Virus record (IMG/VR): IMGVR_UViG_2832576359_000003 | Coordinates: 26,348-90,347 of that record | Length of the DNA stretch: 64,000 nt | Reading direction: 5' to 3' (one strand) | Source: a virus | Taxonomy: Duplodnaviria; Heunggongvirae; Uroviricota; Caudoviricetes | Shown here: positions 3,007 through 62,908 of the stretch, piece after piece | Layout of the letters: each line of letters begins with the position of its first letter | Position numbering within the stretch: the first letter of the stretch is position 1 | Program-made: the position numbers and the translations under genes | Notes under the pieces: model-generated | The model's database searches: none | What the model was told of the DNA's origin: nothing | Seen by the model: the letters and a program-made list of their open reading frames with translations, nothing else

Positions 3007-3459
3007 GTGTTTCGTTTCCGCGAAAAATCGCGTCCGCCTACCGGGCGCCTCTCCTACAAGGTGTTTCGAAAGGGCGCGCTCATCGAGGAATTCGATGATC
3101 ACAACCTGATCGTCATCGGTTCCCAAGCCACGCATGCGCACCTTCTTGGCGGCGACGTCGCAAATCGAAGCCTGACGCAGATTGGCTTCGGAACCAACGC
3201 GACGGCCGAGGTATTCGCGAATGCCGCGCTGACGGGCGCGTACATGAACAGCCTAGGCACGCCGACCTATCCGGCTACCAACGAGGTCAGCTTTCCGTTC
3301 TCGCTTGGTTCTGCCGACGTCAACGCGTTTGGGCTCTCGATCTCCGAATTCGGTTTGCTGACTGCCGGCGGCGTTCTATACGCACGCCGCACGCGCGCAT
3401 TGCCTCTCAACTTCAACAGCGACCTGTCTCTCTCCGGGACGTGGGTCATTTCGTTCTGA
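3007..3459 (+). CDS. Hypothetical tail-associated protein
   Basis: 150-aa ORF between the baseplate genes and the tail fibre. No recognisable motif. Confidence 0.35.
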   Translation: MFRFREKSRPPTGRLSYKVFRKGALIEEFDDHNLIVIGSQATHAHLLGGDVANRSLTQIGFGTNATAEVFANAALTGAYMNSLGTPTYPATNEVSFPFSLGSADVNAFGLSISEFGLLTAGGVLYARRTRALPLNFNSDLSLSGTWVISF

Positions 3460-10049: not shown

Positions 10050-10913
10050 TTAAGCGCTGATCGCGCGCGCTGCTTTTCCGACGTGAACCTTGTCGTCGTC
10101 ATCGATCTTCCACGAAGCAAGAAACCCGACCGATTGAAGTTCGGTCAAAGCCTTTTTGAGCGTCACGCGAAAATGCGACAGCGCCTTCGCCTGCGACCCG
10201 CATTGCTGGTGGATGAATTTCACCGACACCGCGAACGGAGCTGCGTGGGTGTTGTAGTAGCTATGTAGCCACTTCGACAGTTCTGACCTGAGCCGCAGCC
10301 GCTGCTCGCGCGCGACTCGGCTGTAATCATCGGATGCAAACAGTCGCGCGATCTCGGGTTCGATGTAGCAAATCCACCGAGTCTGCCCATCCGAGTCCGT
10401 CTCGGTGCCGTCCTTCCAGATGAACTTTCGAATCAACGAACCCTGAAAGCCTTTTCGGTTTCCCTCGAACGCCACCTTGAGCGAGCTTTCCTGCAGCCGC
10501 TCAAGGATCTTCACGAGGCGCTCGTACCCTTTGCTCGACGTGTCCCATCCGAGCGTCTTCAGCATCGCGTATCCGGTGAATTCGACGCGCTCCGACAAAA
10601 TCGTGTCTCGGGCCAGATGCAGGATCTCAAGAAAGACGTCGGCGTCGTCCTGCCGCAGCTCCTCGCCTTTGTGCGTGATCGTCGTCGTTCCCGAGCTAGC
10701 GATTTGCTTTCCCGGGAAGTATCGATCGCGCGGCGCCGCGGCGCGGTTCACGTTGAAGAGCGCCGATCGCGCGAGCGAATTCGGCATGCCCCGGACGTTG
10801 GACGGCCAGAGCGGGATCTGCGTAGGCTCGTCGGGCTTGGCGACAGCAGCCTTAGCGCTTCTGGCGAGAGCCGCTGCACCGAGTTGCCTAGTTTTTTCGA
10901 CGAGATCATTCAT
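10050..10913 (-). CDS. trfA: TrfA-type plasmid replication initiator
   Basis: LPLWP, RGMPNSLARSALF and winged-helix blocks resemble IncP TrfA. Start placed at MNDLVEK. An iteron-containing oriV lies immediately upstream. Confidence 0.6.
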   Translation of the reverse strand: MNDLVEKTRQLGAAALARSAKAAVAKPDEPTQIPLWPSNVRGMPNSLARSALFNVNRAAAPRDRYFPGKQIASSGTTTITHKGEELRQDDADVFLEILHLARDTILSERVEFTGYAMLKTLGWDTSSKGYERLVKILERLQESSLKVAFEGNRKGFQGSLIRKFIWKDGTETDSDGQTRWICYIEPEIARLFASDDYSRVAREQRLRLRSELSKWLHSYYNTHAAPFAVSVKFIHQQCGSQAKALSHFRVTLKKALTELQSVGFLASWKIDDDDKVHVGKAARAISA

Positions 10914-10949
10914 GGCGGCCACACTAGCGGTAGTCTGCACGATTCGCAA

Positions 10950-11600: not shown

Positions 11601-11664
11601 TCCAGAGTGCTGTGTTACAAGGCTCGGGTTCTGTTTGCCGCCCTGCCCTCCCCGTGTACTTGCT

Positions 11665-12084
11665 TTACTCGAGTCCGTATTTCTTTTTCAACGCGGCCAG
11701 CTTGTCTCGAGTGCCGGCGATGATCACCTCGGACATGGGAATGTCCGTGGCCTTCCAGAAATCCCGCAGTTCCTCGTGCAGGTCGACGGGGAGACGAGTT
11801 TGAAACGGCGTGGTGGCCACCGATCGGCGGCGAGGGATGGGCAACGGATCGTCCTGCGGCTCGTTTTGCGGCTCCACAGGGGGCTTGGGCGCCCTTTCCC
11901 GCGGCTTGGGTGCAGCGACGGCCTCCGAAGCCATAGTGGCGGCCACCTGGTCTTGTGTGTGCGCGGCTGCCTCGGCAGCGTCGATTGCTGTCAGGGAGGA
12001 CGGTGTTTCTGCCTCGTCGCTGTTGCCGCCCTTGATAAATTCCATCGGGCTGCGAAAGCCCTTCCCTCGTGCGGCTGCATTCAT
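11665..12084 (-). CDS. ParG-like ribbon-helix-helix centromere-binding protein (type Ib partition)
   Basis: Small protein downstream of parA. C-terminal TRLPVDLHEELRDFWKATDIPMSEVIIAGTRDKL looks like an RHH fold; N-terminus is disordered. Confidence 0.5.
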   Translation of the reverse strand: MNAAARGKGFRSPMEFIKGGNSDEAETPSSLTAIDAAEAAAHTQDQVAATMASEAVAAPKPRERAPKPPVEPQNEPQDDPLPIPRRRSVATTPFQTRLPVDLHEELRDFWKATDIPMSEVIIAGTRDKLAALKKKYGLE

Positions 12085-12728
12085 TGTGCGATCTCCAGAG
12101 CAAGGGCGCGCATCTCGGCTACGGCCTTGGGGTCAGTGCTGCCGTTGTATTCGGTCACGGCGCGGCCGTCGCGCGCCGTCAGGCGGAATATCTTGCGCTC
12201 GCTGATGAACCCGTCCAGCAGCCGGTATTGGGTCAGGTCTTGAAGGGCTTCGCGCATTTCCGCCACGTCGGTCGATCGGGCGTTTGTCGGAGCGCGGTTG
12301 ATCACCACGAGTGCGCGCAAAGTCTTGTTCCAGATCCGCGCGTTTTTGACGTGGTTGTCCATCTTCGCGAACGTGAAGATGTCGAACTGGCTGGTTTGAG
12401 CAGGTGTGACCACCACATCGGCGGCCACCATCGAGGCGCGCATTTCCTCCGCGTCGTGCCCAGGCGTATCAACCACGATATCGTCGTACTTTGCTTTGAG
12501 GGTCGTCAGCTCTTCTGCAATCGTGGCGCCATAGATGCTGACACACGTGATTTCAGGGGTGATTTTCTCCGTGCGACGTATCTTGTGCCATAGCGATGCC
12601 GATCCCTGCCTATCTGCATCGACGAGTAGCACGTCACGTCCCTCGCCCGCCAGCATTGCGGCATACCCGACGGCCAGCGTGGTTTTACCACTGCCCCCTT
12701 TCTCTCCGCCAAACAAGACAACAGCCAT
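12081..12728 (-). CDS. parA: ParA partition ATPase (small type Ib)
   Basis: Deviant Walker A (GGEKGGSGKTT) and DADRQGS motif. About 215 aa. Start placed at MAVVLFGG. Confidence 0.8.
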   Translation of the reverse strand: MAVVLFGGEKGGSGKTTLAVGYAAMLAGEGRDVLLVDADRQGSASLWHKIRRTEKITPEITCVSIYGATIAEELTTLKAKYDDIVVDTPGHDAEEMRASMVAADVVVTPAQTSQFDIFTFAKMDNHVKNARIWNKTLRALVVINRAPTNARSTDVAEMREALQDLTQYRLLDGFISERKIFRLTARDGRAVTEYNGSTDPKAVAEMRALALEIAQ

Positions 12729-12779
12729 GACAAATACCCCGCGCGCTTGATGTGAATACGCGCAGGGTAGTTGCAATGT

Positions 12780-14606: not shown

Positions 14607-16460
14607 CTACGCCGCGTTGCGATACGAGTTCGAATTCGCGATCTGGTCGCTAATGGCCGGGAACAGTTCGGCGATCTGGTCGACGTCGGCGAGTTCGCCC
14701 TCATGCACCCACTCGCACGCGATCTGCTCGGGCATTCCAAGCGCGGGTTGCTTGAGGGTGGCGAAGAGGAGGGCCGTGTTGATGGCGCCATCGTTCGCTC
14801 GCTTCGCGAGCCAGAGGAGGAGGGCGACGCGCGACTTCGCGTCGAGCACATCGACGCGGTCCAGGATCAAAATCCCGAGGCCCGAAATCGATGCGATCGC
14901 TTCGGCGAGCATCGCGTCGATGCGCCACTTCTCCGACTCACAAAGCAGGCTATAAGCACGACTGTCGCCGGTGATGGTCATGTCCGTATGGATCGTCGCC
15001 TGCGGCCAGTTCGTGTCCATCGCGGATTTGCGAAGGGCGCTATTGATTGGCCTAAGCGCTTTCGCGAGCAGCTGCGCGGGCACGCCTTCGGGTCCGAGCT
15101 GCTCGGCGAGCTTCCCCCACTCGAGCACAGCGGTGTGATGCTTGGCGGCGCGCGTGGACTTGTCGTCTGCCTCGTCTGCCTTCGTCTTTTGCTGTTGAAG
15201 GGTGATGTAGTTCTCGTCTGCCTCGCGATACTCGGCGAGATGAAGCTCGAGCGATTCCTGCGCAACGTTGATGTCGGCTTGCGTGACCTGTTCGCTGCTC
15301 GACGGTTGCGCTGCTTTCTCGCGGGCGATCTCGGCGGAGCGCAACGAACGCTCGGTGTTCGTTTGAGCGTTGGTCGCCATCTCGAGTGCCTTGGTGAACT
15401 CCGCGAGCTTCGCGCGCGCCTCGTCGTCGCCTGTGCTGCTCGGCAAGCCGTACTTGTCGACGTACCGATCGAAGGACGGCTGTAGCTGCGCGCAGATTTC
15501 GACGAGACTTTCCGTCTTCGTTCCTTCGAGGGCATCCAGGGCATATTCGATGCCGCGCGCCAGGTCGTGTTCGAGCCCGACTCGCGGCCCGCTTCCGGCC
15601 TTTGCCTTGAGCGCGTCGACCTGCTGTTGAACCTCGGCGAGCGTCTGGCGATCGGCCATCAGTTGCGAGAAAAGCCGCGGCACTTTTTCGCCCAACTCGC
15701 GGGCCGCGGCGCGTTCTCGGGTTTCGGACTCGTACGCTTCGGCCTTAGCCTTAAGGCTGCCGATGATTTCCTGCGTCGTGTGCACTTGCTTCTCGCATGC
15801 ATCACGCTTCGCCTCGGCCTGCGCGATCGCTTCGGCATCGACTTCGGGCTTCTCGGCCTGCCAACCTTCAGCCTTCTTCGAGCCGTACGTTTCGCCCGTG
15901 ACTTCGCGCCATGCGCCGCGCGCTTCGGTCACCTTGACCGTCGCGAACTTCGCGGCCGCGGGAAAGCCCGTGATCGACTTGAGCAGGGGCAGCGTTTCCT
16001 CGACGAAGACGGCGTCGCACTTGGCCTCGAGCAGCATCGTGCGCAGCCGGTCCTCGGTGACGCCGCAATCGGTGAGGGAAAACAGGAAAGTGCGCCGCTC
16101 GTCGTCGGTCAAGCGCGCGAAGCCCTGCGCGTTGAGAACGTAGGGGAGCGCCTCGGGAAGCCCGAGCGACAGGTCTCCGGTCATGGCGTTCGTGCCGGCC
16201 GGGAGCGAAAACGACGCTTCTCCGATGTCCGTAGCGACGCTCACAGTCCCTGCCTTAGCTCCCTCTGTGACCAGAGTCGGATAGAACTTCTTCAGGTTCA
16301 CGCGCAACGTCTCGCCCGTGAAGGCCATGCGCACGGCTTCCTGGATTGATGACTTCGCGGCGCCGTTGAATCCCGCGAATAAGGTGATAGGGCGCGCCGG
16401 AGCGATATCGATGCGGCGCGCGCCGAGGATGTTGCGAATGCTGATGCTGGTGATTTTCAC
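14607..16460 (-). CDS. SbcC/Rad50/RecF-like AAA ATPase
   Basis: N-terminal Walker A (FAGFNGAAKSS), long coiled-coil middle, C-terminal ILILDRVDVLD Walker B/D-loop-like block. Between ssb and recT. Confidence 0.65.
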   Translation of the reverse strand: MKITSISIRNILGARRIDIAPARPITLFAGFNGAAKSSIQEAVRMAFTGETLRVNLKKFYPTLVTEGAKAGTVSVATDIGEASFSLPAGTNAMTGDLSLGLPEALPYVLNAQGFARLTDDERRTFLFSLTDCGVTEDRLRTMLLEAKCDAVFVEETLPLLKSITGFPAAAKFATVKVTEARGAWREVTGETYGSKKAEGWQAEKPEVDAEAIAQAEAKRDACEKQVHTTQEIIGSLKAKAEAYESETRERAAARELGEKVPRLFSQLMADRQTLAEVQQQVDALKAKAGSGPRVGLEHDLARGIEYALDALEGTKTESLVEICAQLQPSFDRYVDKYGLPSSTGDDEARAKLAEFTKALEMATNAQTNTERSLRSAEIAREKAAQPSSSEQVTQADINVAQESLELHLAEYREADENYITLQQQKTKADEADDKSTRAAKHHTAVLEWGKLAEQLGPEGVPAQLLAKALRPINSALRKSAMDTNWPQATIHTDMTITGDSRAYSLLCESEKWRIDAMLAEAIASISGLGILILDRVDVLDAKSRVALLLWLAKRANDGAINTALLFATLKQPALGMPEQIACEWVHEGELADVDQIAELFPAISDQIANSNSYRNAA

Positions 16461-23996: not shown

Positions 23997-24307
23997 TGCG
24001 TGACGGCCGCCAAGCCGGCAGTGGCGGCAGTAACGCCGGCAGATGCGTACGCGGCACGGGCGGCTAGGCCCTCCGGGATTCGACACGCGCAAGCGTGTGC
24101 GGCGGGGCGCATCGGACACCGGGAAAGACTGGGCAACTGATCAATTTTGCGGGGTAGGGAATGTCGAGCGTGTCGTGGTCGCCTCTTGCATGGCTCCGGG
24201 CTCTGTTCCGGTTTATCGCGCGTCGCGGCGACGGCTCGCAAGCATCTCCCGCCTCGTTGGCGTTTCAATTCAACCTGCCTGACGGCAACCTTTTAAGGGG
24301 TACGACG

Positions 24308-24880
24308 ATGGATCTGCAACTCAAAGACGACGCACAAGCGCAACAGTATTCGGTGGTCCTGAAGGACAAGGCCGGCAACGTCGCGGCGGCAACGGGCGAG
24401 CTGACGGTGTCGGTGTCGGATTCGACGGTGGTTACCGCGACGCTGTCGGCCGATGGTTCGACGGTCGCGATCGCGCCGGGCAAGATCGGTTCGGCTGTCG
24501 TTACGGTGTCGGACGCGGCAGACGAACTGTCGGCGTCGATCAACGTCACGGTGACCGCTGGCACGCCGGCTTCGATCGAACTGGACCCGGTGGCGGCCGA
24601 CACGTCGACCGCGTCGAGCACGGACGCTTCGACCACGGCGGCGAGCACGTCGACGGATGCAACGAGCACGGCCTCGACCGCCGATACCGCGTCGTCGACG
24701 GATGCCACGACGGCGCCGGCTGCTGGTACCGATTCGAGCGCCGATGCAACGGACGCGTCGTCGGCCGATGCGTCGACCGCCACGGATGCGTCGACGGATA
24801 GCGCCGCCTCAACCTCGGATGCAACGACGGACGCGGCCGCGGCCGCCGACGAGACCGCTGCCGACGCGACGGCGCAGTAA
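24308..24880 (+). CDS. Ig-like domain protein with Ser/Thr/Asp/Ala-rich low-complexity tail
   Basis: N-terminal beta-rich stretch (TVSVSDSTVVTATLSADGSTVAIAPGKIGSAVVTVSD) then about 100 aa of STDA-rich sequence. Confidence 0.4.
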   Translation: MDLQLKDDAQAQQYSVVLKDKAGNVAAATGELTVSVSDSTVVTATLSADGSTVAIAPGKIGSAVVTVSDAADELSASINVTVTAGTPASIELDPVAADTSTASSTDASTTAASTSTDATSTASTADTASSTDATTAPAAGTDSSADATDASSADASTATDASTDSAASTSDATTDAAAAADETAADATAQ

Positions 24881-25028
24881 AGCGGTGAAGGGAAGGCGCT
24901 CGCACGCGCGGGCGTCTTCGTTTTAAGAAGATTTGAATTGCGTTTTACGCAGAATTGTCTATGATGGCTGCATTGCATGGCGGATGAGTTGTCTGCAATG
25001 TGTATAGCTGTGTAGCAGTGTGGATATA

Positions 25029-25103
25029 CGCGGGCTTGGCCGATCGGTTAGGCGCCAGCTTCCCAAGCTGGTAATAGGCGAGTTCGATTCTCGCAGCCCG
25101 CTC
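25029..25103 (+). tRNA. tRNA-Gly (anticodon CCC), slightly noncanonical D-stem and 6-nt variable loop
   Basis: Acceptor GCGGGCT/AGCCCGC, anticodon arm CCAGC-TTCCCAA-GCTGG, T-arm GCGAG-TTCGATT-CTCGC, 3' TCCA. Confidence 0.6.
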
Positions 25104-25258
25104 CAGTATTAGTGCTTCCCGCTCGGTTGGATCGAGTGCTTGGCCCCCGGTCGGGACTCAGGGGTGCCCCTCAAGCGCCGAGGAATCGAAGAGGCCATGA
25201 CCGGCCGCTAGCAGCGCCTCGAAATAATCGTCCGCTGGCCCCGTAGGGCCAACGATTT

Positions 25259-25335
25259 GGCAGGGTGGGGAAGTTGGTCATCCCGATGGGCTCATAACCC
25301 GTAGATCGCTGGTTCGAGTCCAGCCCCTGCAACCA
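25259..25335 (+). tRNA. tRNA-Met-like (anticodon CAT) with G1-A72 mismatch
   Basis: Anticodon arm ATGGG-CTCATAA-CCCGT, T-arm GCTGG-TTCGAGT-CCAGC, encoded ACCA end. First acceptor pair mismatched. Confidence 0.5.
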
Positions 25336-25523
25336 AACTGATGGGTGGCGCAACCTCCCTGAACCGGTGACCTAAAAGTTAGGGAACTGCGCGGAGCAAC
25401 GACGGTTGCGAGTGTTCAGAAATACGGGTGTAACAGTGGTTGCTCGGGGCCGGTGACGTACACCGGCGCTGTACCCGATATGCGCATGCGATGTGTGTGC
25501 ATATCAGGTGCAGTAAGCGGTAT

Positions 25524-25600
25524 GTCGCGTTGGACTTCTGGTTGAGGTCAGCATCCTTTCAAGGTGCGTAGGTCGGGTTCGAATCCCACACGCGACACCA
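25524..25600 (+). tRNA. tRNA-like gene (possible anticodon TTC), imperfect T-stem
   Basis: 7-bp acceptor GTCGCGT/ACGCGAC with encoded ACCA. Hairpin GCATC-CTTTCAA-GGTGC. GGGTTCGAATCCC T-loop with a mismatched stem. Confidence 0.35.
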
Positions 25601-25604
25601 GTTT

Positions 25605-25683
25605 CGCTGGGTAGCTCAAGCGGTAGAGCGTTCTCTCTCCAGAGAGGGGAAGGTTGGTGGTTCAAGTCCATCCCTGGCGGCCA
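25605..25683 (+). tRNA. tRNA-like gene, anticodon arm irregular
   Basis: Canonical D-arm TAGCTCAAGCGGTAGAGC and T-arm GGTGG-TTCAAGT-CCATC. Acceptor has two G-U pairs. There are 3-4 extra nt around the anticodon arm, so the anticodon is ambiguous. Confidence 0.35.
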
Positions 25684-25915
25684 GCGGTTCCTTGTTGTGC
25701 TTCGGTGCGGTGCCAGCCATAACATCGGCTGGGTGGAGGGTCGGGGCCGCTACCCCGACCCCTCATTTACCCATCGAAGAATGTGCATGAATTGCAACTA
25801 ACGCCCAAGCATGCTCGTCTCTCGGCGAGCGCTTCGCGGTGGTTGCGCAATGGTTGGGTGGCCGGGGCGATATCCCTTTGTGTCCGCGCGCAAACCGCGC
25901 CTCGGCTGCTCAAAC

Positions 25916-26001
25916 CCTCTGGTCTGGATTTGCTCGCTGACGTTCTCTAAGGACCCGCTCGTTCGCTGGAGCGTCGGAGATAGAGTCCAGACCAGAGGGT
26001 G
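25916..26001. ncRNA. Structured element: 14-bp perfect inverted repeat stem-loop
   Basis: CCCTCTGGTCTGGA at 25916 and TCCAGACCAGAGGG at 25988 flank a 58-nt loop that has internal pairing potential. Lies between tRNA-like genes. Confidence 0.3.
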
Positions 26002-26019
26002 AGGGGCCGCACCCTAGCA

Positions 26020-26119
26020 GCAGCCGTAGCTCAGTCAGGTAGAGCACCCCGTCGAGGGGGAGACTGGAATTCCAGGCACGCGGCGCCGTGTGGCACGGGT
26101 TCAAATCCCGTCGGCTGCT
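26020..26119 (+). tRNA. Long tRNA-like element (about 100 nt) with extended 11-bp terminal stem and insertion
   Basis: D-arm GTAGCTCAGTCAGGTAGAGC and T-arm ACGGG-TTCAAAT-CCCGT. Terminal stem AGCAGCAGCCG/CGGCTGCTGCT. About 45-nt insert containing the palindrome CTGGAATTCCAG. Class II or intron-like, anticodon unassigned. Confidence 0.3.
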
Positions 26120-26556
26120 GCTAGGGCGACAAGGGGCCTCGCGCCCTGACAGCAGAGTCTGCCGAGAACGTCGCGCGCGCGGCGCCGAGGCGAACGTCGA
26201 TGGTGTGGCCGCATCGGTAGGCGGGATCCGGGCTCTGCTGTGAGGGTGGAAGGTACGGCGGCTTCAAAAATGTGACCTCCGGTGTGCGGGTTCGAGTCCC
26301 GATCGCTGGCCGAGACTGAAGTTGGTAGACGCAGACGAAATAGCCATGTGCGAAACGTCGGAGCACGGCTGGTGTGCAGTTGGAACGCACACCCGAGGTC
26401 ACCCTCATCGAACTGCGCTTGCATCGCAGTCCACCAGTTGGCAGCGTCGGGAGACGCCCCCCGTCAGCACGAGTGCTGCGGTCTGTGTCTGATCCTATCG
26501 GGTCCATACCGCAGTAGTTTTGCATTGGTCTCCTACGGCTTCCCCGGTCGAAGGAT

Positions 26557-26590
26557 TAAAGCCCCGAATTTCGGGGCTTTTTTTTATGCT
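26557..26590. terminator. Bidirectional rho-independent terminator
   Basis: AAAGCCCCGAAatttCGGGGCTTTTTTTTTAT. Confidence 0.7.
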
Positions 26591-26793
26591 GCAGCGGTCT
26601 TGCGCGCGCGAGGCGGATAGATCCGCTTGATGCGGATGCCGGCGGCGCGCCGCGCGGCCGCGATCGTCCGATAATCCGGATTCTTGTACATCGCCTGGGG
26701 CGTGAGCCCGGCCAGGCGCGCGGCGCGGTATCCAGTGCAGCCCCCGCGCACGAGCTCGAGCGCGGTGATCATGCGATCGCTGATCGTCTTCAT
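26584..26793 (-). CDS. Small HTH DNA-binding protein
   Basis: ITALELVRGGCTGYRAARLAGLTPQAMYKN is HTH-like. Last gene of the leftward accessory block. Confidence 0.4.
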   Translation of the reverse strand: MKTISDRMITALELVRGGCTGYRAARLAGLTPQAMYKNPDYRTIAAARRAAGIRIKRIYPPRARKTAAA

Positions 26794-28877: not shown

Positions 28878-29384
28878 CTAGTCCATGTGTTGGTTCGGAA
28901 AGGCCGCGCACGGGCCCTCGTGTCCACTCTTGCGCTGGCATTGCCATCCTGCTTCGGCCTTGTCGCACGAGCCGTCGTCGACCTCGATCTGCGTGTTTGT
29001 CTGTCGAGCGCGCGCGACGGCAGCAAGTTCCTCGATGACGGCCGAGGCCGCGGTGAAGTCATTCATGCGGCCAGAGTGATCGCGCGCCCATTCCGGCACG
29101 CCGTCGCGCCACTGACCGTGCGCGCGCAGATGGAGCCATTCGGCGTAGCGCGGGGTATCGCTCGCCACATCATCGGCTTCAGGGGAGGCGCGCCGGTTCC
29201 ACGCCGCGGTAAGACCGTCGAGCGTCGAATGGATCATTCCGCACTCACAGCCAGGACATGCGATCGTGAAGCTGCCTGGATGTGGCGGCAGGTCGGACCA
29301 GTGGTGCGGGTGTGGCGGATGTTCTTCGATCGTTTGCTCGGACCCGCAGAACGGGCATCGCAACAGGTTCCGTTGAGTGGTCAT
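28878..29384 (-). CDS. Zn-ribbon protein, possibly Lar-like restriction alleviation
   Basis: N-terminal LLRCPFCGSEQ and a later CPGCECG cluster. Confidence 0.3.
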   Translation of the reverse strand: MTTQRNLLRCPFCGSEQTIEEHPPHPHHWSDLPPHPGSFTIACPGCECGMIHSTLDGLTAAWNRRASPEADDVASDTPRYAEWLHLRAHGQWRDGVPEWARDHSGRMNDFTAASAVIEELAAVARARQTNTQIEVDDGSCDKAEAGWQCQRKSGHEGPCAAFPNQHMD

Positions 29385-36154: not shown

Positions 36155-38125
36155 TTAAGCGGCCGCGGCAGCACGCAACTCGTGCGCGAAATTAGCGCGG
36201 ATGATTGCGGCGGCGACCGGCGGGCAGACGCTGTTGCCGATCATGCGGACCTGAGCCGACTTGGAAAGGCGCTTGCCGTTGTGCTCGGGGTCGAGCACGT
36301 ACGAATCGGGGAAGCCCTGGGCACGCGCGAGCTCGCGCGGCGTGAGCATGCGCATGCCGATATCGACGATGGCGTAGTCCTCGCCGTGGATCGTCACGAG
36401 ACCGAGCCGGTCTTTCGTCGGGATCGTGTGCATCGGGTCGCGCAGATCCTGATGCTGGCCGCCTTCGCTGTAGTACTTGATCAGGAAGGCGCGCACCTCG
36501 GCGTGATGCAGTCCACCGGCGCTTACCGTGTGGAGCGGCTCGGCGACCGGTTGCGCGCCGCCGTTGTTGCGCAGCTTCACGAGGTGCGACACGGCGATCG
36601 CCGAATCGGCCTTCGCGGTGATTGTGGCAGCGGGCTCGCTCGCGTCGCGCGGCCGAGACTGACCAGCGCGGCCGCCACAGCCGACGATCTGAGCGGTGAC
36701 GAGCGCGTGGTGATCCTGCGTCGTGACCGTGCTCATCGGGTATGCGAGGTCCGCGCCGGGCGTTTCATTACCGCCGTAGTGCTTCGCGAGGAAGGCGGAC
36801 ACGAGGGCGTGCTTCGCGCCGCCCGCGACGACGGTGCCGAGTGGCTTGTCGATACCCGGCGCGCGCGGCGCCTGCCCGGCGCGCTCGCCGTATCCCGTCT
36901 GAATCAGCGTTGCGGCGACGATCTGCTGCTGGCCGCCGCTCGCAGTGATCGTGCTCAGCGGCGCTTTTGCGGATCGACCGGCCTTAACGCCCACGCGTTC
37001 CTTGTTGTGCTGCGCGAGGAATGCAGTAACGAGCGCTTGCTCGCTGCGGTTCGCGCCCGTGACGGTCGCGAGCGGTGCGTCGGCGCGCGCGCCGCGGTCT
37101 GAGCCCTGGTGCGTGACGTGCATCAAGGTCGGCGCGACCATCGCAAGGCTTCCACCGCGCGGATACGCGGTGATCGTGCGCAATGGTTCGCTCCCGCTGT
37201 GGACCGTGTCGCGGCCGTTGTAGTGCGCAATCGGAACGATGAAAGGGTCGGCGCTGTTCACGACGAACTTCATGATGCCGCGCGCGATACGCCGCAGCGT
37301 CGCATCCTTGAGCGGGCGATCGCGCTCGAAGATCGAGGGGCACGGGATCGACCAGTCGATGCATTCGGCCGCGGTGCGGTACGGCGCGAGCGCGCCGCGC
37401 GCGACGGCGTCCGAGTTCGGCGCGCCGTGCGTGGGCGCGGGCCAAACGATCGGAAGCCCATCGCGGCGCGCGAACAGATAGAGGCGCTTGCGAATCGTCG
37501 GCGTGCCGAAGTCGCACGCGCGCAGCACGCGCCATTCGACCTTGTATCCGAGCCCCGCGTAGAGTCGCTCCATCGGGAAGTCGGCGCCGAGCGTCTCGAA
37601 GATCTCGGGCACGTCCGGGTGCTCAGGCGACAGGCCGGACGAGAGCGCATCGACGAACGCGCGGAACGTGCGGCCTTTCTCGGCCTTGATCGGTTGGCCG
37701 TGCTCGTCGACCGGGCCCCAATCCTGGAACTCCTCGACGTTTTCGAGCGCGAGGCAGCGCGGCACCTGGAAGGTCCCCCACTTCAGGGCGATCCAGGCCA
37801 GCCCGCGGATCTTCTGGTCGCGCGGCTTGCCGCCCTTCGCCTTCGAGTGATGCTTGCAATCGGGGCTGAACCAGGCAAGCCCGATCGGCATCTGGTTCGT
37901 GATGAAGCCCGGGTGCACCGCAAAGACGTCTTCGCGATAGTGCCGCGTCGTCGGGTGGTTGGCCGCGTGCATCGCGAGCGCTTCGCCGTCGTGGTTGATG
38001 GCGATATCGACCGGGCGCCCGAAGGCCATCTCAATGCCCGTGCTCGCGCCGCCGCCGCCGGCGAAGTTATCCACGATGAGTTCGTGCCCCAAGTCGAGCT
38101 CGAAACTGATCTCGTCGCGCTTCAT
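36155..38125 (-). CDS. DNA cytosine-5 methyltransferase with 8 tandem ~35-aa repeats in the variable region
   Basis: Motif I DNFAGGGG, PC-like SPDCKHHS, ENV(EEF) motif, C-terminal MIGNSVCPPVAAAI. Repeat unit PLxTITAxG..HALVTAFLAKHYG occurs 8 times between roughly aa 300 and 580. Confidence 0.7.
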   Translation of the reverse strand: MKRDEISFELDLGHELIVDNFAGGGGASTGIEMAFGRPVDIAINHDGEALAMHAANHPTTRHYREDVFAVHPGFITNQMPIGLAWFSPDCKHHSKAKGGKPRDQKIRGLAWIALKWGTFQVPRCLALENVEEFQDWGPVDEHGQPIKAEKGRTFRAFVDALSSGLSPEHPDVPEIFETLGADFPMERLYAGLGYKVEWRVLRACDFGTPTIRKRLYLFARRDGLPIVWPAPTHGAPNSDAVARGALAPYRTAAECIDWSIPCPSIFERDRPLKDATLRRIARGIMKFVVNSADPFIVPIAHYNGRDTVHSGSEPLRTITAYPRGGSLAMVAPTLMHVTHQGSDRGARADAPLATVTGANRSEQALVTAFLAQHNKERVGVKAGRSAKAPLSTITASGGQQQIVAATLIQTGYGERAGQAPRAPGIDKPLGTVVAGGAKHALVSAFLAKHYGGNETPGADLAYPMSTVTTQDHHALVTAQIVGCGGRAGQSRPRDASEPAATITAKADSAIAVSHLVKLRNNGGAQPVAEPLHTVSAGGLHHAEVRAFLIKYYSEGGQHQDLRDPMHTIPTKDRLGLVTIHGEDYAIVDIGMRMLTPRELARAQGFPDSYVLDPEHNGKRLSKSAQVRMIGNSVCPPVAAAIIRANFAHELRAAAAA

Positions 38126-50621: not shown

Positions 50622-51752
50622 TTGATGAGTGAAAAGAAAGTGATTGCGCCGTCGATCGGCCGCAAGGTCTGGTACGTGCCGCTCGCACGCGATGGCGAGA
50701 TCAAAACGAACGACGAGGTTCAGCCGCTCGACGCCACGGTCATCTACGTGTGGTCCGACAGCATGGTCAACCTCGACGTGACGGACCATGTCGGGGCGCG
50801 CCACGTTCGCACGAGCGTCACGCTGATCCACCCCGGGGACGCCGAATTGCAATGGGGCGGCTTCGCGAAATGGATGCCCTACCAGGTCGGCCAAGCGAAC
50901 AAGGAAGATGGCCGTCGAGTCGTGGGAATCGACCCCGTCGGAAAGCTCGAGACGACGGAATCGGCGCCGCGCGGCGGCGACGCGCAGACGCGCATCGGCC
51001 CGAGCGTTGCTCGCGAGGCCATCGAGGCGCTGTTCGAGCGCGTCGACTGGAAATTTGAACAGCCGTCCGGGAGCACGTCGACGTTCGCGCATGCGTTCCT
51101 CGACGGCTTCTATCTCGCGTCCGGTCATTCGGCGTGCGTGTCGCCGGAAAATTTCAACGCTTTCATGGGGCGCAATATCGCGCTGGAACAGGCGCGCCAG
51201 AAGGTCTATGACAAGCTGTGGGAACTGGAGGACTACCTGCTGCGCGCGCGCATCAACGGGCGCTTGGGCGACATCACGTACGCGCTTGGCGAGGTGACCG
51301 TCAGAATCGACCAAGATATGCGGTGCCACATCTGGACCCCGGGCGAAGTGACGATCGATGGCAATGTGAACTGCACCGGCTCTGTGGTCGCCGCGGCCGG
51401 TACGTTGGCGCCCGAAAAGCATTCGACTGGCGTCGCGGCGCGCCCGCAAGCGCATTCCGACATGGATATCGGCGGCGCGATCGCGGCGCTGAAGGATGGC
51501 GAGCGCGTCGCGCGGCGCGGCTGGAACGGAAAGGACATGTGGCTCGCGCTGTCGCCGGGCGTGAGTGCGGTCCCTGCCGACAAGTTCTGGGCTCGGCCGA
51601 ACCGAGCCTACGCGGCGTCGACCGAATCGGGAGCGGCCGACGTGCTGCCCTCTGTGACGATGAAGACCGCGACGGGTGAGATCCTGATGGGCTGGCTCGC
51701 CTCGCAGACGGACTTGCTCGCGAACGACTGGTTCGTGCTGGAAGGGCAGTGA
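50622..51752 (+). CDS. Gp49-like domain + C-terminal DUF2829 (Tad2-like) domain protein
   Basis: Middle block FAHAFLDGFYLASGHSACVSPENFNAFMGRNIALEQARQKVYDKLWELEDYL is Gp49/66-like. C-terminal GGAIAALKDGERVARRGWNGKDMWLAL...DLLANDWFVL is the Trp-rich DUF2829 pattern. Confidence 0.45.
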   Translation: MMSEKKVIAPSIGRKVWYVPLARDGEIKTNDEVQPLDATVIYVWSDSMVNLDVTDHVGARHVRTSVTLIHPGDAELQWGGFAKWMPYQVGQANKEDGRRVVGIDPVGKLETTESAPRGGDAQTRIGPSVAREAIEALFERVDWKFEQPSGSTSTFAHAFLDGFYLASGHSACVSPENFNAFMGRNIALEQARQKVYDKLWELEDYLLRARINGRLGDITYALGEVTVRIDQDMRCHIWTPGEVTIDGNVNCTGSVVAAAGTLAPEKHSTGVAARPQAHSDMDIGGAIAALKDGERVARRGWNGKDMWLALSPGVSAVPADKFWARPNRAYAASTESGAADVLPSVTMKTATGEILMGWLASQTDLLANDWFVLEGQ

Positions 51753-60338: not shown

Positions 60339-62072
60339 TCATGGCATGATCCCGGTCCAGTCGATGCTGCCTGGCTCGGGGCACTCCCACGACATGGCAA
60401 GGCGATTGCGCATTTGCGCAAGTGTCGTCGTCCGTACCAGTTTCCCATCACGAAAGATCGGCTTAAGCGAGCCGGTATCGAACACGGTAGGGTCTTGCCG
60501 GTCGTACAGCACGTAATCGTCGTCAACGCGGCGCACGCACACCAATCCCTTCGCGGACTTCTTCGTGCCGTCGTCGGTTGCCGGATCCTTGTAAATCTCT
60601 ATCGACTCGCCGCCGACCTCGGCATAGATCGCCTTCAGCGCGAAGCCGAATGTATCGCGTGACACCATGTTGTACGTGTACGAGCCGATGCCGAAAACGA
60701 CGTTGTTCGACGCGAAGCCCTTGTCTGCCAGACGGCGCAGGATGCGCACGCCACGCTCGAGTGTGATCGAATCGCCGTAGATCAGGCCTACGTGACTGTC
60801 GAGTACCTTGAAGCCCTTGTCTGTTCCCGTGCCGCCGTAGATATCCCAGAGGCATTCGACCGCGCCCTTGCGCTCGGCAGCCGTGATCCGACGACCCATG
60901 CCTGCGCGTCCGCACGTGACATATTTTCCTTCTTCGTCGACAACCGGTTGCCCATCGTCGTCGCACATAAGCTCGTCATTTCGGTAACCCGTCAGAATCT
61001 TCACCGGGTCGCCCGAGTCGGGCCTGAACACCACCTTGCACTGGCCGAGCGCATTTGGCCGGCGCGCGAGAATCTCGTCTTTGAGCTCGCGCGCGACGAC
61101 CGTGATCGTGTTCCAGAAATCGAACGAATCGGCGACGATCGAAATCATGCCTTCGGGATAGTCCTCGGTCACAAGCTCGCGGATCACTTCCTGCTCGGCG
61201 ACGCACCGCATTTGCTTCTCGGTGAAAATCTCGTTTCCGCGCTTGCGCTTGAGAGCCGCGAGCACGCGCAGAATCCGAAGCGTCATCACGCTGTGCTCGG
61301 TCGCCGGGATCGAACCCCCGATCAGTTCCTTATCTGCGTCGGCGCCGTAGAAGTCCTCGGCATAGTCGATAGCGGGGATCGTGTCGGTGCCGGTGAATGA
61401 GAGCAAGTGACCGAGGCCGCAACGCATCGCATCGTGCACGCCGCTCATGCCGCGCATCGAGAAATCGTGGCCTTGCCAGCTAACGAAGTCCTCGGGAGCA
61501 CCCGTGAGCCGCGCGAAGTACGTGAGCAGCTTGCGGAATTCAAAGGCAATCGTCGCGACCGTCGACGGCTTCCAGTTCTCGCAGCTGAATAGCGTCTCGA
61601 AGTACGTTGCGAGCCACGAATGCTCGCCTCGGGCAATAAAGATGATCGGCGGCACCTTGATATTCACGCGAGAGCCTTCGGGGAGTGCCCGGATCTCGAG
61701 CGGCAAATATCCGAGGTCGTGCAAGGCCTCGAGCTTCGCCGTCGACACTGCATCCGGTCCGAGTGCGGTGTCCATGCGGCGCTTGAACTTGCGCACGGCC
61801 TTGGCCTTGGGAACGTCGAAGAATCGCTTCCCGAACAGGTCAATGACGAATTCCTGAATCCAGCCCTGCTGGCCGAGCCACACGACCTTTCCGTCGAACA
61901 GCTGCGGCAGGACCGGCGCGTACTTAGCCGAGCGCGGCGTGAAGTTCGCGACGAGCATGTCTAATCCGGCCGGGTACATGCCCGGGTGCCCGGTCTTGTA
62001 GAAGTCGGCGAGGTTGAACGGCACGAGGCCGTTTTGCTTCTCGAGTACGTCGTGATCGATGGGTGCGTTCAT
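60339..62072 (-). CDS. Nicotinamide phosphoribosyltransferase family protein (NadV/NAMPT; possibly Namat-like)
   Basis: N-terminal NLADFYKTGH(P)GMYP (NAMPT TDSYK-type motif), GTDT, IADSFD and FGIGS blocks typical of the NAMPT family. Confidence 0.75.
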   Translation of the reverse strand: MNAPIDHDVLEKQNGLVPFNLADFYKTGHPGMYPAGLDMLVANFTPRSAKYAPVLPQLFDGKVVWLGQQGWIQEFVIDLFGKRFFDVPKAKAVRKFKRRMDTALGPDAVSTAKLEALHDLGYLPLEIRALPEGSRVNIKVPPIIFIARGEHSWLATYFETLFSCENWKPSTVATIAFEFRKLLTYFARLTGAPEDFVSWQGHDFSMRGMSGVHDAMRCGLGHLLSFTGTDTIPAIDYAEDFYGADADKELIGGSIPATEHSVMTLRILRVLAALKRKRGNEIFTEKQMRCVAEQEVIRELVTEDYPEGMISIVADSFDFWNTITVVARELKDEILARRPNALGQCKVVFRPDSGDPVKILTGYRNDELMCDDDGQPVVDEEGKYVTCGRAGMGRRITAAERKGAVECLWDIYGGTGTDKGFKVLDSHVGLIYGDSITLERGVRILRRLADKGFASNNVVFGIGSYTYNMVSRDTFGFALKAIYAEVGGESIEIYKDPATDDGTKKSAKGLVCVRRVDDDYVLYDRQDPTVFDTGSLKPIFRDGKLVRTTTLAQMRNRLAMSWECPEPGSIDWTGIMP

Positions 62073-62092: not shown

Positions 62093-62908
62093 TTAGACCA
62101 CGGTGCAGCGATCGTCGCTGATCCAGTTGTTACGCGTGAAAACCTGCGCATATCCCTCGAGCAGCACGTCGAGTCCCTTGCTGAAAATGCCGTGTGTGAC
62201 GTAGAGGAAAAGCTGGTGGCGCGTGCCCTGCGTGTCCTGCTTAGCTTTGATGGCGCTCGCCAATTCGATAAAAGTCCGTCCACCGTCGCAGATGTCGTCG
62301 ACGACAAGCAAGGGCAATTCGGGAAGGTCGCCGAGGACCTCGGTGCCCGTGATCTGACCGGTTCGTGTGTCGCGCACCTTGTCCGCAAATACGACTTCCA
62401 GATCGAAGGCCGAGGCGAGCTTCAGGACGCGTTTGCGTGCCCCCGCATCGGGTGCCACTAGCGCGACCTTCGTGCCGATTCGGTCGATCACCGCCGAGAG
62501 AGGCAGAACCGGGTCGGCGATCTGGACACGCTCGAGCAGCGCGGGCACGACGTCGCTGTGCGGATCCTCAATGAGCACGCGGCTGTATTTCTGGGCGTTG
62601 ATCAGGTCACAAAACACCTTGGCGCTCAGCGACTCTCCCCGGTTGGCCACGCGATCCTGGCGTGCATAGGGGACATAGGGCATGTCAAGGATGATGCCGG
62701 CCGCCGGATAGGCGCGGCGCAGCGCGTCAGTGATCATGATCAGCGCCATGACGTCGGCCGAGCTTTTCAGTCCTGCGCTGATCAGCAGCCCGCGGGGCGC
62801 GACGGCGTCTGCCTGAACGGTTGCGTGGATCTCGCCACCGGGGAACGTGAGGGTCTTTACGTCGAGCTTCCTATAGCCTGTTTCGGTAACTACGGATACA
62901 TCGATCAT
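62093..62908 (-). CDS. Ribose-phosphate pyrophosphokinase-family protein (short Prs-like; possibly Adps-like)
   Basis: Prs N-terminal domain pattern and PRPP-binding loop (LLVVDDICDGGRTFIELASA). 271 aa, shorter than canonical Prs. Adjacent to the NAMPT-like gene. Confidence 0.7.
   Translation of the reverse strand: MIDVSVVTETGYRKLDVKTLTFPGGEIHATVQADAVAPRGLLISAGLKSSADVMALIMITDALRRAYPAAGIILDMPYVPYARQDRVANRGESLSAKVFCDLINAQKYSRVLIEDPHSDVVPALLERVQIADPVLPLSAVIDRIGTKVALVAPDAGARKRVLKLASAFDLEVVFADKVRDTRTGQITGTEVLGDLPELPLLVVDDICDGGRTFIELASAIKAKQDTQGTRHQLFLYVTHGIFSKGLDVLLEGYAQVFTRNNWISDDRCTVV

Follow-up and report, generated by a model that had tools for sequence, protein, structure and literature searches.

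The locus described here lies in a 64,000-nt stretch of viral DNA (Caudoviricetes; positions 26,348 to 90,347 of the IMG/VR record IMGVR_UViG_2832576359_000003), referred to below as the window. The replicon, a contig of Pararobbsia silviterrae (Burkholderiaceae; a soil relative of Burkholderia), is phage-plasmid-like; two proteins encoded in the window show 100% identity to NCBI proteins of this species. On the + strand of the window, from ~24.93 to 26.585 kb with a core at 25030-26310, lies a non-coding unit that contains two good tRNAs, one eroded tRNA, one non-decoding derivative of tRNA-Trp, one relic T arm, hairpin cassettes and a member of a family of tRNA mimics. This last element (26012-26126), referred to as E5, is a tRNA-derived RNA of six helices that lacks an anticodon, and its RNA-level structure is under purifying selection.

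Layout of the RNA operon

No open reading frame (ORF) with coding-like composition or third-position GC content (GC3) is present between 24881 and 26583. The upstream ORF (24161-24880) is followed, just past its stop, by a GC-rich hairpin and GUUUU (24892-24925, + strand) in the minimum free energy (MFE) fold of 24881-25029 (z = -3.1). This hairpin probably terminates the upstream unit, so the RNA operon would need its own promoter somewhere in 24926-25029; the consensus terminator scan gave no flag at 24892-24925. At the other end, the terminator scan found an intrinsic terminator closing the operon (26558-26585, + strand; a 10-bp stem followed by T8), which abuts a convergent ORF (26584-26793, - strand). 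We give an about even chance to the reading that the whole region is a single + strand, RNA-only operon of ~1.65 kb on a phage-plasmid.

The T-loop motif GGTTCRANTCC occurs five times in the window, always on the + strand and between 25311 and 26299, against 0.31 occurrences expected from shuffles, and a sixth, variant T loop (GTTCGATTC) belongs to the Gly gene. ARAGORN calls four tRNAs, Gly(CCC) at 25030-25105, Met(CAT) at 25259-25335, Glu(TTC) at 25524-25600 and Trp(CCA) at 25605-25683. The Rfam tRNA model (RF00005) matches these four and also 26020-26119, within E5, with 57.5 bits for Met, 54.1 for Gly, 49.0 for 26020-26119, 42.1 for the Trp call and 37.5 for Glu (gathering score 29). The genes starting at 25030, 25259, 25524 and 25605 are thus called by ARAGORN without special options and also score above the Rfam threshold. 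The first-pass annotation, made from the letters alone, had proposed a cluster of tRNA and tRNA-like genes here, and the five motifs, four ARAGORN calls and five Rfam matches bear it out. It had also credited five or more elements with a D arm of the type TAGCTCA..GGTAGAGC and with an encoded CCA; this D arm is found in only two, the Trp-like gene and E5, and CCA is encoded by the four ARAGORN tRNAs only, being absent from E5 and from a lone T arm at 26286-26302. Its view that Gly and Met alone are near-canonical was correct, since the Glu gene has two T-stem mismatches and the Trp-like gene has 26 nt between its D and T stems, against 23 expected. ARAGORN and Rfam together return clean canonical tRNAs for only two of the six tRNA-type elements of the operon, all of which are on the + strand, and structured RNA other than tRNA makes up ~1.2 kb of the unit's 1.65 kb.

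BLAST of 24900-26620 against 50,697 phage records, in near and distant modes, matched the Met and Glu tRNAs alone, and exact-protein look-ups with window genes returned no records. Relatives reached through the neighbouring Gp37/Gp68 and DUF7338 proteins (94 IMG/VR loci; L306-L308 came from a separate look-up) have no tRNA locus beside the gene, because these are moron-like genes without synteny.

Structure of the tRNA-like RNA E5

E5 (26012-26126, + strand) is recognised by the Rfam tRNA match of 49 bits over 26020-26119, an MFE fold with z = -3.9, a perfect inverted repeat (I5) and covariation among its homologues. The same six helices (terminal, D, Pa, Pb, Pc and T) appear in the RNAalifold consensus and in the single-sequence MFE fold. 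In the window, the terminal helix consists of 15 perfect bp (26012-26026 with 26112-26126), comprising a 7-bp acceptor and an 8-bp extension; it is 16 bp long in the family consensus, the extension measuring 8-10 bp across the family, and the 11 bp reported at first pass was an underestimate. The D arm is canonical, with U8, A14, G18 G19 and A21 all present, and so is the T arm, the elbow carrying G18 G19 and UUCRAAU.

Three hairpins take the place of the anticodon and variable arms. Pa has a CCCC/GGGG stem and a loop of 5 nt in the window (5-6 nt across the family), Pb has a CUGG/CCAG stem with an AAUU loop in the window, and Pc has 6 bp in the window (5-6 bp across the family) and a tetraloop. 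The first-pass annotation had described an insertion of ~45 nt with an EcoRI-type palindrome. E5 does have 42 nt extra relative to the tRNA model, but these are not one insertion, as three hairpins replace the whole anticodon/variable region. GAATTC is also present, as the CUGG-AAUU-CCAG tetraloop hairpin; it is not kept as a palindrome in the homologues described below, where L075 has CTGGTATTCCAG and the plasmid pBVIE05 has a different, longer hairpin, so that the EcoRI site in E5 is incidental.

Features of a decoding tRNA are missing from E5. It lacks an anticodon stem of 5 bp whose 7-nt loop would carry U33 and a conserved anticodon (its hairpin loops are of 4-6 nt), and the Pa loop, which reads GUCGA, AUUGA, GUUGA, AUUGG or UCGUAU across the family, has no U at the second position when taken as a 7-nt loop. 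There is no free single-stranded 3' end (N73 + CCA) in the RNA as encoded, where N73 and 7-9 nt beyond it are base-paired to the 5' leader in five of five homologues. E5 is unlikely to decode. For annotation this carries a lesson, namely that a 49-bit Rfam tRNA match can be a non-tRNA.

Several known RNA and element classes were considered and rejected. ARAGORN calls neither E5 nor any homologue outside its intron mode, in which no two of the five homologues receive the same anticodon (Ser-CGA, Ser-GGA, Leu-GAG, Pro-GGG and Asp-ATC) or intron position; as there is also no loop with U33 and a conserved triplet, the intron-containing tRNA suggested at first pass is abandoned. For a group I intron, the extra material amounts to only 42 nt, compared with a core of at least ~200 nt, and no Rfam intron family matches at E <= 10. 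A tmRNA is neither called by ARAGORN in default mode nor matched by Rfam, and low-threshold calls reuse the T arm of the Met gene and yield implausible tags. The best match to tRNA-Sec (RF01852) lies at 26217-26310 with 16.2 bits (E = 6.9), against a gathering score of 47. The checks for group I introns, tmRNA and tRNA-Sec that had been proposed at first pass thus support none of the three. The Rfam model of the C4/CI type of antisense RNA has no match in the window region or in the pBVIE05 gap (E <= 1-10). A miniature inverted-repeat transposable element (MITE)-like origin is rejected on the non-conserved helix sequence, the imperfect and offset flanking repeats, and the single copy per replicon. 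Among Rfam families, the generic tRNA model alone matches the E5 family, and literature searches found no description of an equivalent.

The acceptor and D arm of E5 match those of a tRNA-Gly(GCC) on the Variovorax paradoxus plasmid NZ_CP138514.1 (1.19 Mb), and therefore E5 is tRNA-derived. The Gly(GCC) gene on that plasmid is part of a ten-tRNA cluster (L311 2501-3859, + strand), in a part of the record that carries no annotation.

Downstream of E5 lies a lone T arm (GCGGG-UUCGAGU-CCCGA, 26286-26302, + strand), found by its T-loop motif and having neither a supporting cloverleaf (local fold z = +0.6) nor a CCA. It forms a 77% direct repeat (D4) with the T arm and 3' strand of E5, and is probably a relic of a tRNA or of an E5 duplicate. 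Its T stem is overlapped by the 5' arm of a 17-nt inverted repeat (16/17 pairs; 26272-26288 with 26386-26402), and GGTGTGC occurs twice, at 26281 and 26370, so that alternative pairings are possible.

Homologues, covariation and genomic contexts of E5

Three homologues of E5 (L075, L082 and L085) were found by a pattern scan of IMG/VR, and a fourth by BLAST against plasmids on pBVIE05 of Burkholderia vietnamiensis G4 (covariance model 60 bits, E = 1e-18). The pBVIE05 member (14608-14752 of the plasmid) has the same six helices with a longer Pb. Together with the window copy, the covariation set contains five sequences in three lineages (window; L075/L082/L085; pBVIE05). In the alignment 99% of cells pair, against 40-48% with slid partners, and compensatory changes on both sides affect 22 of the 39 pairs, including 11 of 16 in the terminal helix and all six in Pc; none of 500 shuffles reached these pairing and compensation values. 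G-U pairs occur in the + strand sense only. All lineages have an identical D arm, T loop and Pa stem (CCCC/GGGG), while Pb ranges from 4 bp to a hairpin ~29 nt longer. The family is well supported by covariation. For E5 itself, the 22 compensatory pairs in three lineages refute the first-pass suggestion of a decaying pseudogene, which stays plausible for the Glu gene (the T stem being intact in LR756511) and the lone T arm, and possibly for the Trp-like gene.

The members, carried by mobile elements of Burkholderiales, occupy three contexts that share no flanking homology. In the window, E5 lies inside the tRNA operon. L085, L082 and L075 are D3112/Casadabanvirus-like (Mu-like) transposable prophages, in which E5 fills a ~135-nt gap between the DUF1804 gene (encoding a 'DNA-binding protein') and terL; the DUF1804 and terL reading frames of Ralstonia phage RS138 and Pseudomonas Casadabanvirus overlap by 4-8 nt. 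The third member is found in an 850-nt non-coding gap of pBVIE05, a phage-plasmid whose complete sequence of 88 kb includes genes for a phage repressor, ERF, RepB and lysis. ARAGORN calls no tRNA on the whole of pBVIE05, which has one family member only, and in two of the three contexts there are no adjacent tRNAs.

The family was not found in the 50,697 phage records. In 72,556 plasmid records it is confined to pBVIE05, the one other match being to the D arm of the ordinary tRNA-Gly on the Variovorax plasmid. A covariance model run over ~1.5 Mb of fetched loci found no members beyond pBVIE05 and those already known, and family-specific DNA patterns gave no match in genome contigs, L075 again in metagenomes and no new members in IMG/VR. 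A general 'D arm - long gap - T loop' pattern was given up in genome contigs, where it was overrun by archaeal intron-bearing tRNAs.

Other tRNA-like elements in IMG/VR, unrelated to E5, share the same D arm and T loop (L081 2399-2549, - strand; L074 5491-5600, - strand; L084 3394-3481, - strand, which equals L086). They have a terminal helix lengthened to 10-19 bp and, where the anticodon loop would be, a long hairpin. Closed-end tRNA-shaped RNAs may be a wider phenomenon in phages. A further tRNA-like gene, on the 189-kb metagenome contig Ga0315290_10000001 (L206 1683-1781, + strand), has a 7-bp acceptor and a CUCGG/CCGAG anticodon stem around a 33-nt structured insertion; this AT-rich contig may be a jumbo phage.

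The tRNA-Gly, tRNA-Met and tRNA-Glu genes

Gly(CCC) and the initiator-type Met(CAU) are sound tRNAs. tRNA-Gly(CCC) (25030-25105, + strand; ARAGORN, Rfam 54.1 bits) is canonical, with G1-C72, C2-G71, G3-C70, U73 and an encoded CCA. tRNA-Met(CAU) (25259-25335, + strand; ARAGORN drawing, Rfam 57.5 bits) also has an encoded CCA and combines a G1/A72 mismatch with GGG/CCC at 29-41, 30-40 and 31-39, i.e. three G-C pairs at the bottom of the anticodon stem, and G11-C24. The identity rules of initiator tRNAs are a 1-72 mismatch, three G-C anticodon-stem pairs and purine11-pyrimidine24, and from these established rules we infer that the gene encodes a putative initiator tRNA. The E. coli initiator has C1xA72 and A11-U24, so that the gene in the window is a variant of this type. 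tRNA-Met is the one gene common to the window and its syntenic relatives, with 88% identity to the genes of L315-L319 and the same G1/A72 and GGG/CCC, and in the phage-record BLAST it is 82-87% identical to the tRNA-Met genes of Pseudomonas phage D3 and others.

tRNA-Glu(UUC) (25524-25600, + strand; ARAGORN, Rfam 37.5 bits with two flagged non-pairs) retains G1-C72, U2-A71, U13-G22 and an encoded CCA, and its T stem UCGGG/CCCAC has only 3 bp. In the homologous phage tRNA-Glu of LR756511 the T stem (AUGGG/CCCAU) is intact, and therefore the window copy looks eroded.

The tRNA-Trp-derived gene

The gene at 25605-25683 (+ strand) has G73, a CCA triplet at the anticodon position and an encoded CCA end, and its anticodon arm is 3 nt too long. 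The 7-nt-loop register drawn by ARAGORN costs +3.3 kcal/mol and its pair probabilities are 0.001 or less, compared with -3.5 kcal/mol for an 8-nt-loop register and -6.4 kcal/mol for a third register with a 6-bp stem (UCUCUC/GAGAGG) and a UCCA tetraloop. The MFE of the whole molecule (-27.5 kcal/mol) is a cloverleaf whose anticodon stem has 8 bp and ends in a CCAG tetraloop; with two of these pairs open, the stem has 6 bp, the loop is the 8-nt CUCCAGAG and the variable loop has the normal 5 nt. None of these is a 7-nt anticodon loop on a stable 5-bp stem, and as the extra bases give a tetraloop or an 8-nt loop, the gene cannot decode normally. A second lesson for annotation is that an ARAGORN 'Trp' call can mask an arm unable to form an anticodon loop. 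None of 76 IMG/VR matches to a Trp-type pattern is a homologue.

Relic, mimic and frameshifting tRNA are all conceivable for this gene. There is only a slight chance that it is a natural +1 frameshifting or quadruplet-reading tRNA with the 8-nt anticodon loop C-U-CCAG-A-G. The register with the 6-bp stem, the 8-nt loop and the 5-nt variable loop dominates the ensemble (pair probabilities 0.39-0.51), U33 is present, and G73 and the CCA triplet agree with the identity elements generally accepted for bacterial TrpRS. Loops of 8 nt also occur in the frameshift-suppressor tRNAs SufJ and SufB2 (PMC4238358; bioRxiv 10.1101/2020.12.31.424971), and the 8-nt loop possible for the Trp-like gene has U33, then CCAG as its four bases, then a purine. 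Unlike theirs, the Trp-like loop can close into a tetraloop, the MFE shutting it by two more Watson-Crick pairs, and the anticodon stem is of 6-8 bp and not 5; no homologue offers covariation, and no gene needing a +1 shift was identified, though no systematic search was made.

Structured spacers, hairpin cassettes and syntenic relatives

The 188-nt spacer after tRNA-Met (25336-25523, + strand) is highly structured (MFE -88.1 kcal/mol, z = -6.1 against dinucleotide shuffles) and includes a 13-bp hairpin at 25475-25507; no homologue and no Rfam match was found for it. Upstream of E5, the fold of 25684-26005 has z = -7.1 and contains a long, near-perfect hairpin cassette (25914-26001, + strand; inverted repeat I1), the base of whose helix reads CCCUCUGG.../...CCAGAGGGUGA. 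A second long-hairpin cassette, with the base GCGCCCUGACAGC.../...GCUGUGAGGGUGGAAGG, follows E5 (26137-26253, + strand; inverted repeat I3 and fold). In the form GCGCCCUGACAGC.../...GCUGUGAGGGUG this base is common to the last cassette of L315 and L318, with three compensatory pairs further in (by eye).

Loci L315 and L318 belong to the syntenic relatives, metagenomic contigs of ~93 kb reached via the neighbouring HU gene. Their gene order is that of the window (SSB, AAA_23, RecT, PD-(D/E)XK, repressor, HU, gap), and at the same position they have tRNA-Met(CAU) and tRNA-Gly(UCC) with 0.5-1.1 kb of non-coding sequence between. Just upstream of tRNA-Met lies a 114-nt expanded tRNA-like relic (L316 11379-11492, + strand; also in L315, L317 and L318), which combines a 7-bp acceptor GUCGUGU/ACGCGAC (like that of the window Glu), a T arm and an encoded GCCA end with a non-tRNA interior, and matches Rfam tRNA-Sec at 22 bits.

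Tandem long hairpins are found in the spacers of the window, in the pBVIE05 gap and in the spacers of the syntenic relatives. Seven hairpins share an 18-bp two-part basal helix, CACUCUCA-N-GCAUGGCGAY...RUCGCCAUG-N-UGAGGGUG(AA) (also written with the 3' end UGAGGGUGAA), and differ in their apical parts. Outside the window, cassettes lie at 3281-3392 of pBVIE05 (L309), at 11645-11758, 11972-12078, 12258-12362 and 12458-12546 of L316, at 11645-11750 and about 11935-12015 of L315, and at 2672-2776 of L318. The terminal helix of E5 has the same kind of base (GCACCCUAG.../...CUAGGGCGA in the window and GCACUCUCAG.../...CUGAGGGUGAAUGC on pBVIE05), so that on both replicons one cassette base encloses the tRNA-like core. 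Neither cassettes nor spacers match Rfam, and for the cassettes BLAST gave no match in other plasmids. Reading the conserved GAGGGUGAAUG motif as Shine-Dalgarno-like or as part of a small ORF was rejected, as the AUG is not conserved between cassettes. The hairpin cassettes are real but unexplained.

Gene content of the replicon

Phage functions encoded in the window include a gpA-type large terminase, a tail-fibre C-terminal domain, RecT with a PD-(D/E)XK nuclease, and a Holliday-junction resolvase; the Pfam scan covered 20 window ORFs, including the ten longest. Plasmid functions stand amid this otherwise phage-like genome, namely a TrfA-type replication initiator (10050-10949, - strand) and a ParA ATPase (12081-12776, - strand), and the replicon and its lifestyle are therefore read as phage-plasmid-like.

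The replicon is rich in predicted anti-defence functions. A 376-aa protein (50622-51752, + strand) fuses an N4 gp49/Sf6 gp66 domain to a C-terminal Tad2-like (Thoeris anti-defence 2) domain, and a homologue of the restriction-alleviation protein Lar is encoded at 28878-29384 (- strand). A gene of the NAPRTase family (nicotinamide/nicotinate phosphoribosyltransferase; 60339-62072, - strand) adjoins a ribose-phosphate pyrophosphokinase (PRPP synthetase) gene (62093-62908, - strand), and the pair looks like a phage NAD+ reconstitution module countering NAD-depleting defences. In addition, a C-5 cytosine DNA methylase (36155-38125) is confirmed by Pfam, and two more methylase-like ORFs were recognised from their translations only.

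Proposed function of E5 and alternative explanations

In the preferred reading, one of those suggested at first pass, E5 would be a decoy or defence-evading RNA. The family appears to keep the features of tRNA maturation, a 7-bp acceptor stacked on the T arm and a D-loop/T-loop elbow, which would be those that RNase P, the CCA-adding enzyme and the enzymes modifying the T loop recognise. The closing helix, stacked on the T arm, would measure ~20 bp, and this long helix together with the elbow may allow E5 to be excised from any carrier transcript, be it a poly-tRNA precursor or the late DUF1804-terL mRNA. That the maturation features are kept while the ends are closed by a helix argues that E5 is probably excised from its host transcript. 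The helix might be cut by RNase III or RNase E and the 5' end then generated by RNase P at +1, with CCA possibly added, giving a stable tRNA-shaped RNA of ~100 nt without an anticodon. Working in trans, this product could mimic the acceptor/T-arm/elbow half of tRNA and so engage or soak up a host factor that reads this half, candidate targets being a tRNA-targeting defence nuclease and a tRNA-modifying or tRNA-tailing enzyme, while the genuine tRNAs of the operon would top up or replace those of the host. The anti-defence genes of the replicon, and what is known of phage tRNAs in counter-defence, make such a role reasonable. Overall, we hold it an even question whether the operon mixes working tRNAs with non-decoding tRNA-derived RNAs and E5 is a processed tRNA mimic acting in trans.

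Several points weigh against this reading. A base-paired leader and trailer make a poor RNase P substrate. The promoter scan found no sigma-70 consensus promoter for the RNA operon, the start of which is thus undefined. The family is small (five sequences in three lineages), and its sole invariant non-tRNA features, the CCCC/GGGG stem of Pa and a purine-rich linker after it, suggest no partner. The trans-acting decoy role is purely what we infer. Finally, in L085, L082 and L075 the helix begins 12 nt past the DUF1804 stop and stops 12 nt ahead of the terL ATG, which fits a role in cis at least as well.

A role in cis is the main rival, although we consider it unlikely. E5 would then be a punctuation or stability module, at which RNase P or RNase III splits a polycistronic transcript or which caps an mRNA end against exonucleases; in the prophages, the closed helix would keep stop and start adjacent for translational coupling, and the released RNA would be functionless. 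Besides the tight 12-nt spacing, with no obvious Shine-Dalgarno sequence before terL, this is favoured by the overlap of DUF1804 and terL in the related phages, by the row of other long-helix cassettes in which the window copy stands, and by the constraint falling on helices only, Pb varying as widely as it does. It fits less well with the pBVIE05 and window copies, which lie in long non-coding stretches with no adjacent ORFs to punctuate. Moreover, stability would call for no more than a plain hairpin, but the D arm, T loop and Pa stem are invariant, which argues that the tRNA shape itself is read.

The cassettes invite a broader version of the trans-acting mimic, which is decidedly unlikely as a whole. 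Burkholderiales phage-plasmids would carry a cassette system of tandem long hairpins with a common basal helix (5'-CACUCUCA...UGAGGGUGAA-3' and variants) and differing apical payloads. A dedicated or host endonuclease would read the base and free the payloads, among them the anticodon-less mimic, which would neutralise a defence or toxin hitting the acceptor/T-arm half of tRNA, and Mu-like prophages would have captured the mimic separately.

E5 might instead be a selfish, non-autonomous mobile insertion of tRNA origin that spreads among phage genomes and is kept harmless by its closed helix. Its occurrence in three unrelated contexts, its being extra relative to RS138 and Casadabanvirus, and short imperfect direct repeats at its flanks (CGGTC in L085, AGGGGCC in the window) are consistent with insertion. 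However, the repeats do not cleanly abut the helix, there is a single copy per replicon, and the element is absent from the phage records and, among the plasmid records, confined to pBVIE05. Inverted repeats read by a transposase would keep their sequence, whereas the terminal helix differs almost completely in sequence between lineages and still pairs (11/16 compensatory); a selfish element is very unlikely because the helix covaries and is not conserved in sequence.

It is highly improbable that the whole cluster is a decaying phage tRNA array in which the odd elements are pseudogenes. The eroded T stem of Glu, the lone T arm without a cloverleaf and the Trp-like gene without a homologue would suit such decay, as would the syntenic relatives, which retain only Met and a different Gly(TCC) besides the relic at L316 11379-11492. 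Against it stand the compensatory changes in E5, the strongly structured spacers (z = -6 to -7), and the Gly and Met genes, which score like ordinary tRNAs. Next to no chance is given to E5 being a bacterial Y RNA of the Yrn1 or YrlA type that tethers the Ro60/Rsr protein: as a tRNA mimic whose terminal helix is long it resembles Yrn1 of D. radiodurans (PMC4201824), but YrlA is permuted and ends at the anticodon-arm position (PMC4201824) where E5 has the topology of a tRNA, Rfam matches none but tRNA, the Ro-binding motif GNCGAA(N)G occurs in none of the three kinds of 5' strand (window, L085 and pBVIE05), and no TROVE or RtcB domain is found in the Pfam-scanned window ORFs or annotated on pBVIE05, host chromosomes not having been searched.

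Comparison with known systems

E5 is a conserved tRNA-shaped RNA without an anticodon, found on three kinds of mobile element, two of which have no tRNA genes. Phage tRNA clusters have been interpreted as supplementing codons or as replacing host tRNAs cut by defence nucleases, and phage tRNAs oppose defences that target tRNA (PMC10264068, PMC11555353); in certain defences the attack falls on the tails of tRNAs and not on their anticodons (PMC12851939). The operon resembles the clusters of T4, T5, D3 and mycobacteriophages in its one-strand tRNA genes, its non-coding organisation and its phage-type replicon, which here also encodes protein anti-defence genes. It differs in that two of its six tRNA-type elements are canonical, ~1.2 kb consists of structured non-tRNA RNA, and one member has no anticodon. 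To our knowledge, the known cases of phage counter-measures are decodable tRNAs with altered anticodon loops. Should E5 prove to be a processed mimic, phage counter-defence would gain an RNA decoy or a module for RNase P-dependent RNA release, and the family is experimentally accessible, as B. vietnamiensis G4 is cultured and pBVIE05 has a single copy.

Bacterial Y RNAs are tRNA mimics on which tRNA-modifying enzymes, RNase P and CCA addition can act; M. smegmatis YrlA, for one, is an RNase P substrate and acquires CCA (PMC4201824). Like the Ro60/Rsr-bound YrlA and Yrn1 (Chen et al. 2014, PMC4201824), E5 is a non-coding copy of the D arm, T arm and acceptor stack with a long end helix, and the group spans bacteria and phages. 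The acceptor of YrlA is a closed hairpin and its ends lie at the anticodon arm, unlike E5, which keeps tRNA topology, has no Ro motif and no match to a Y RNA in Rfam, and no Rsr is present among the scanned window ORFs or in the pBVIE05 annotation.

In the tRNA-like domain of tmRNA and in mascRNA/MALAT1, as proposed for E5, an acceptor and T-arm mimic serves recognition by RNase P, and the Rfam mascRNA model gives a sub-threshold match to 26060-26118 (19.4 bits, E = 0.82). Unlike E5, tmRNA has no D stem and carries a long anticodon-side helix and a tag reading frame, and mascRNA is eukaryotic. The C4 RNA of P1/P7 and the CI RNA of P4, on which Hartmann et al. worked in 1995 and Forti et al. 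also worked, are said to be phage-plasmid immunity RNAs released by RNase P from longer transcripts. E5 is likewise a phage-plasmid RNA embedded in a longer transcript, and release by the tRNA machinery is proposed for it; C4 and CI are antisense RNAs of ~70-77 nt with an acceptor/T-like stack only, and the Rfam C4 model does not match E5.

Ponchon and Dardel reportedly engineered, in 2007, a 'tRNA scaffold' in which foreign hairpins replace the anticodon arm and which is processed and stabilised like a tRNA. E5 similarly retains the acceptor, D and T arms and has its anticodon arm swapped for hairpins. The scaffold is artificial and has a free NCCA end, whereas the E5 family is natural, with a base-paired acceptor extension and no encoded CCA; if E5 is indeed a processed mimic, the family would be a natural counterpart of the engineered tRNA scaffolds.

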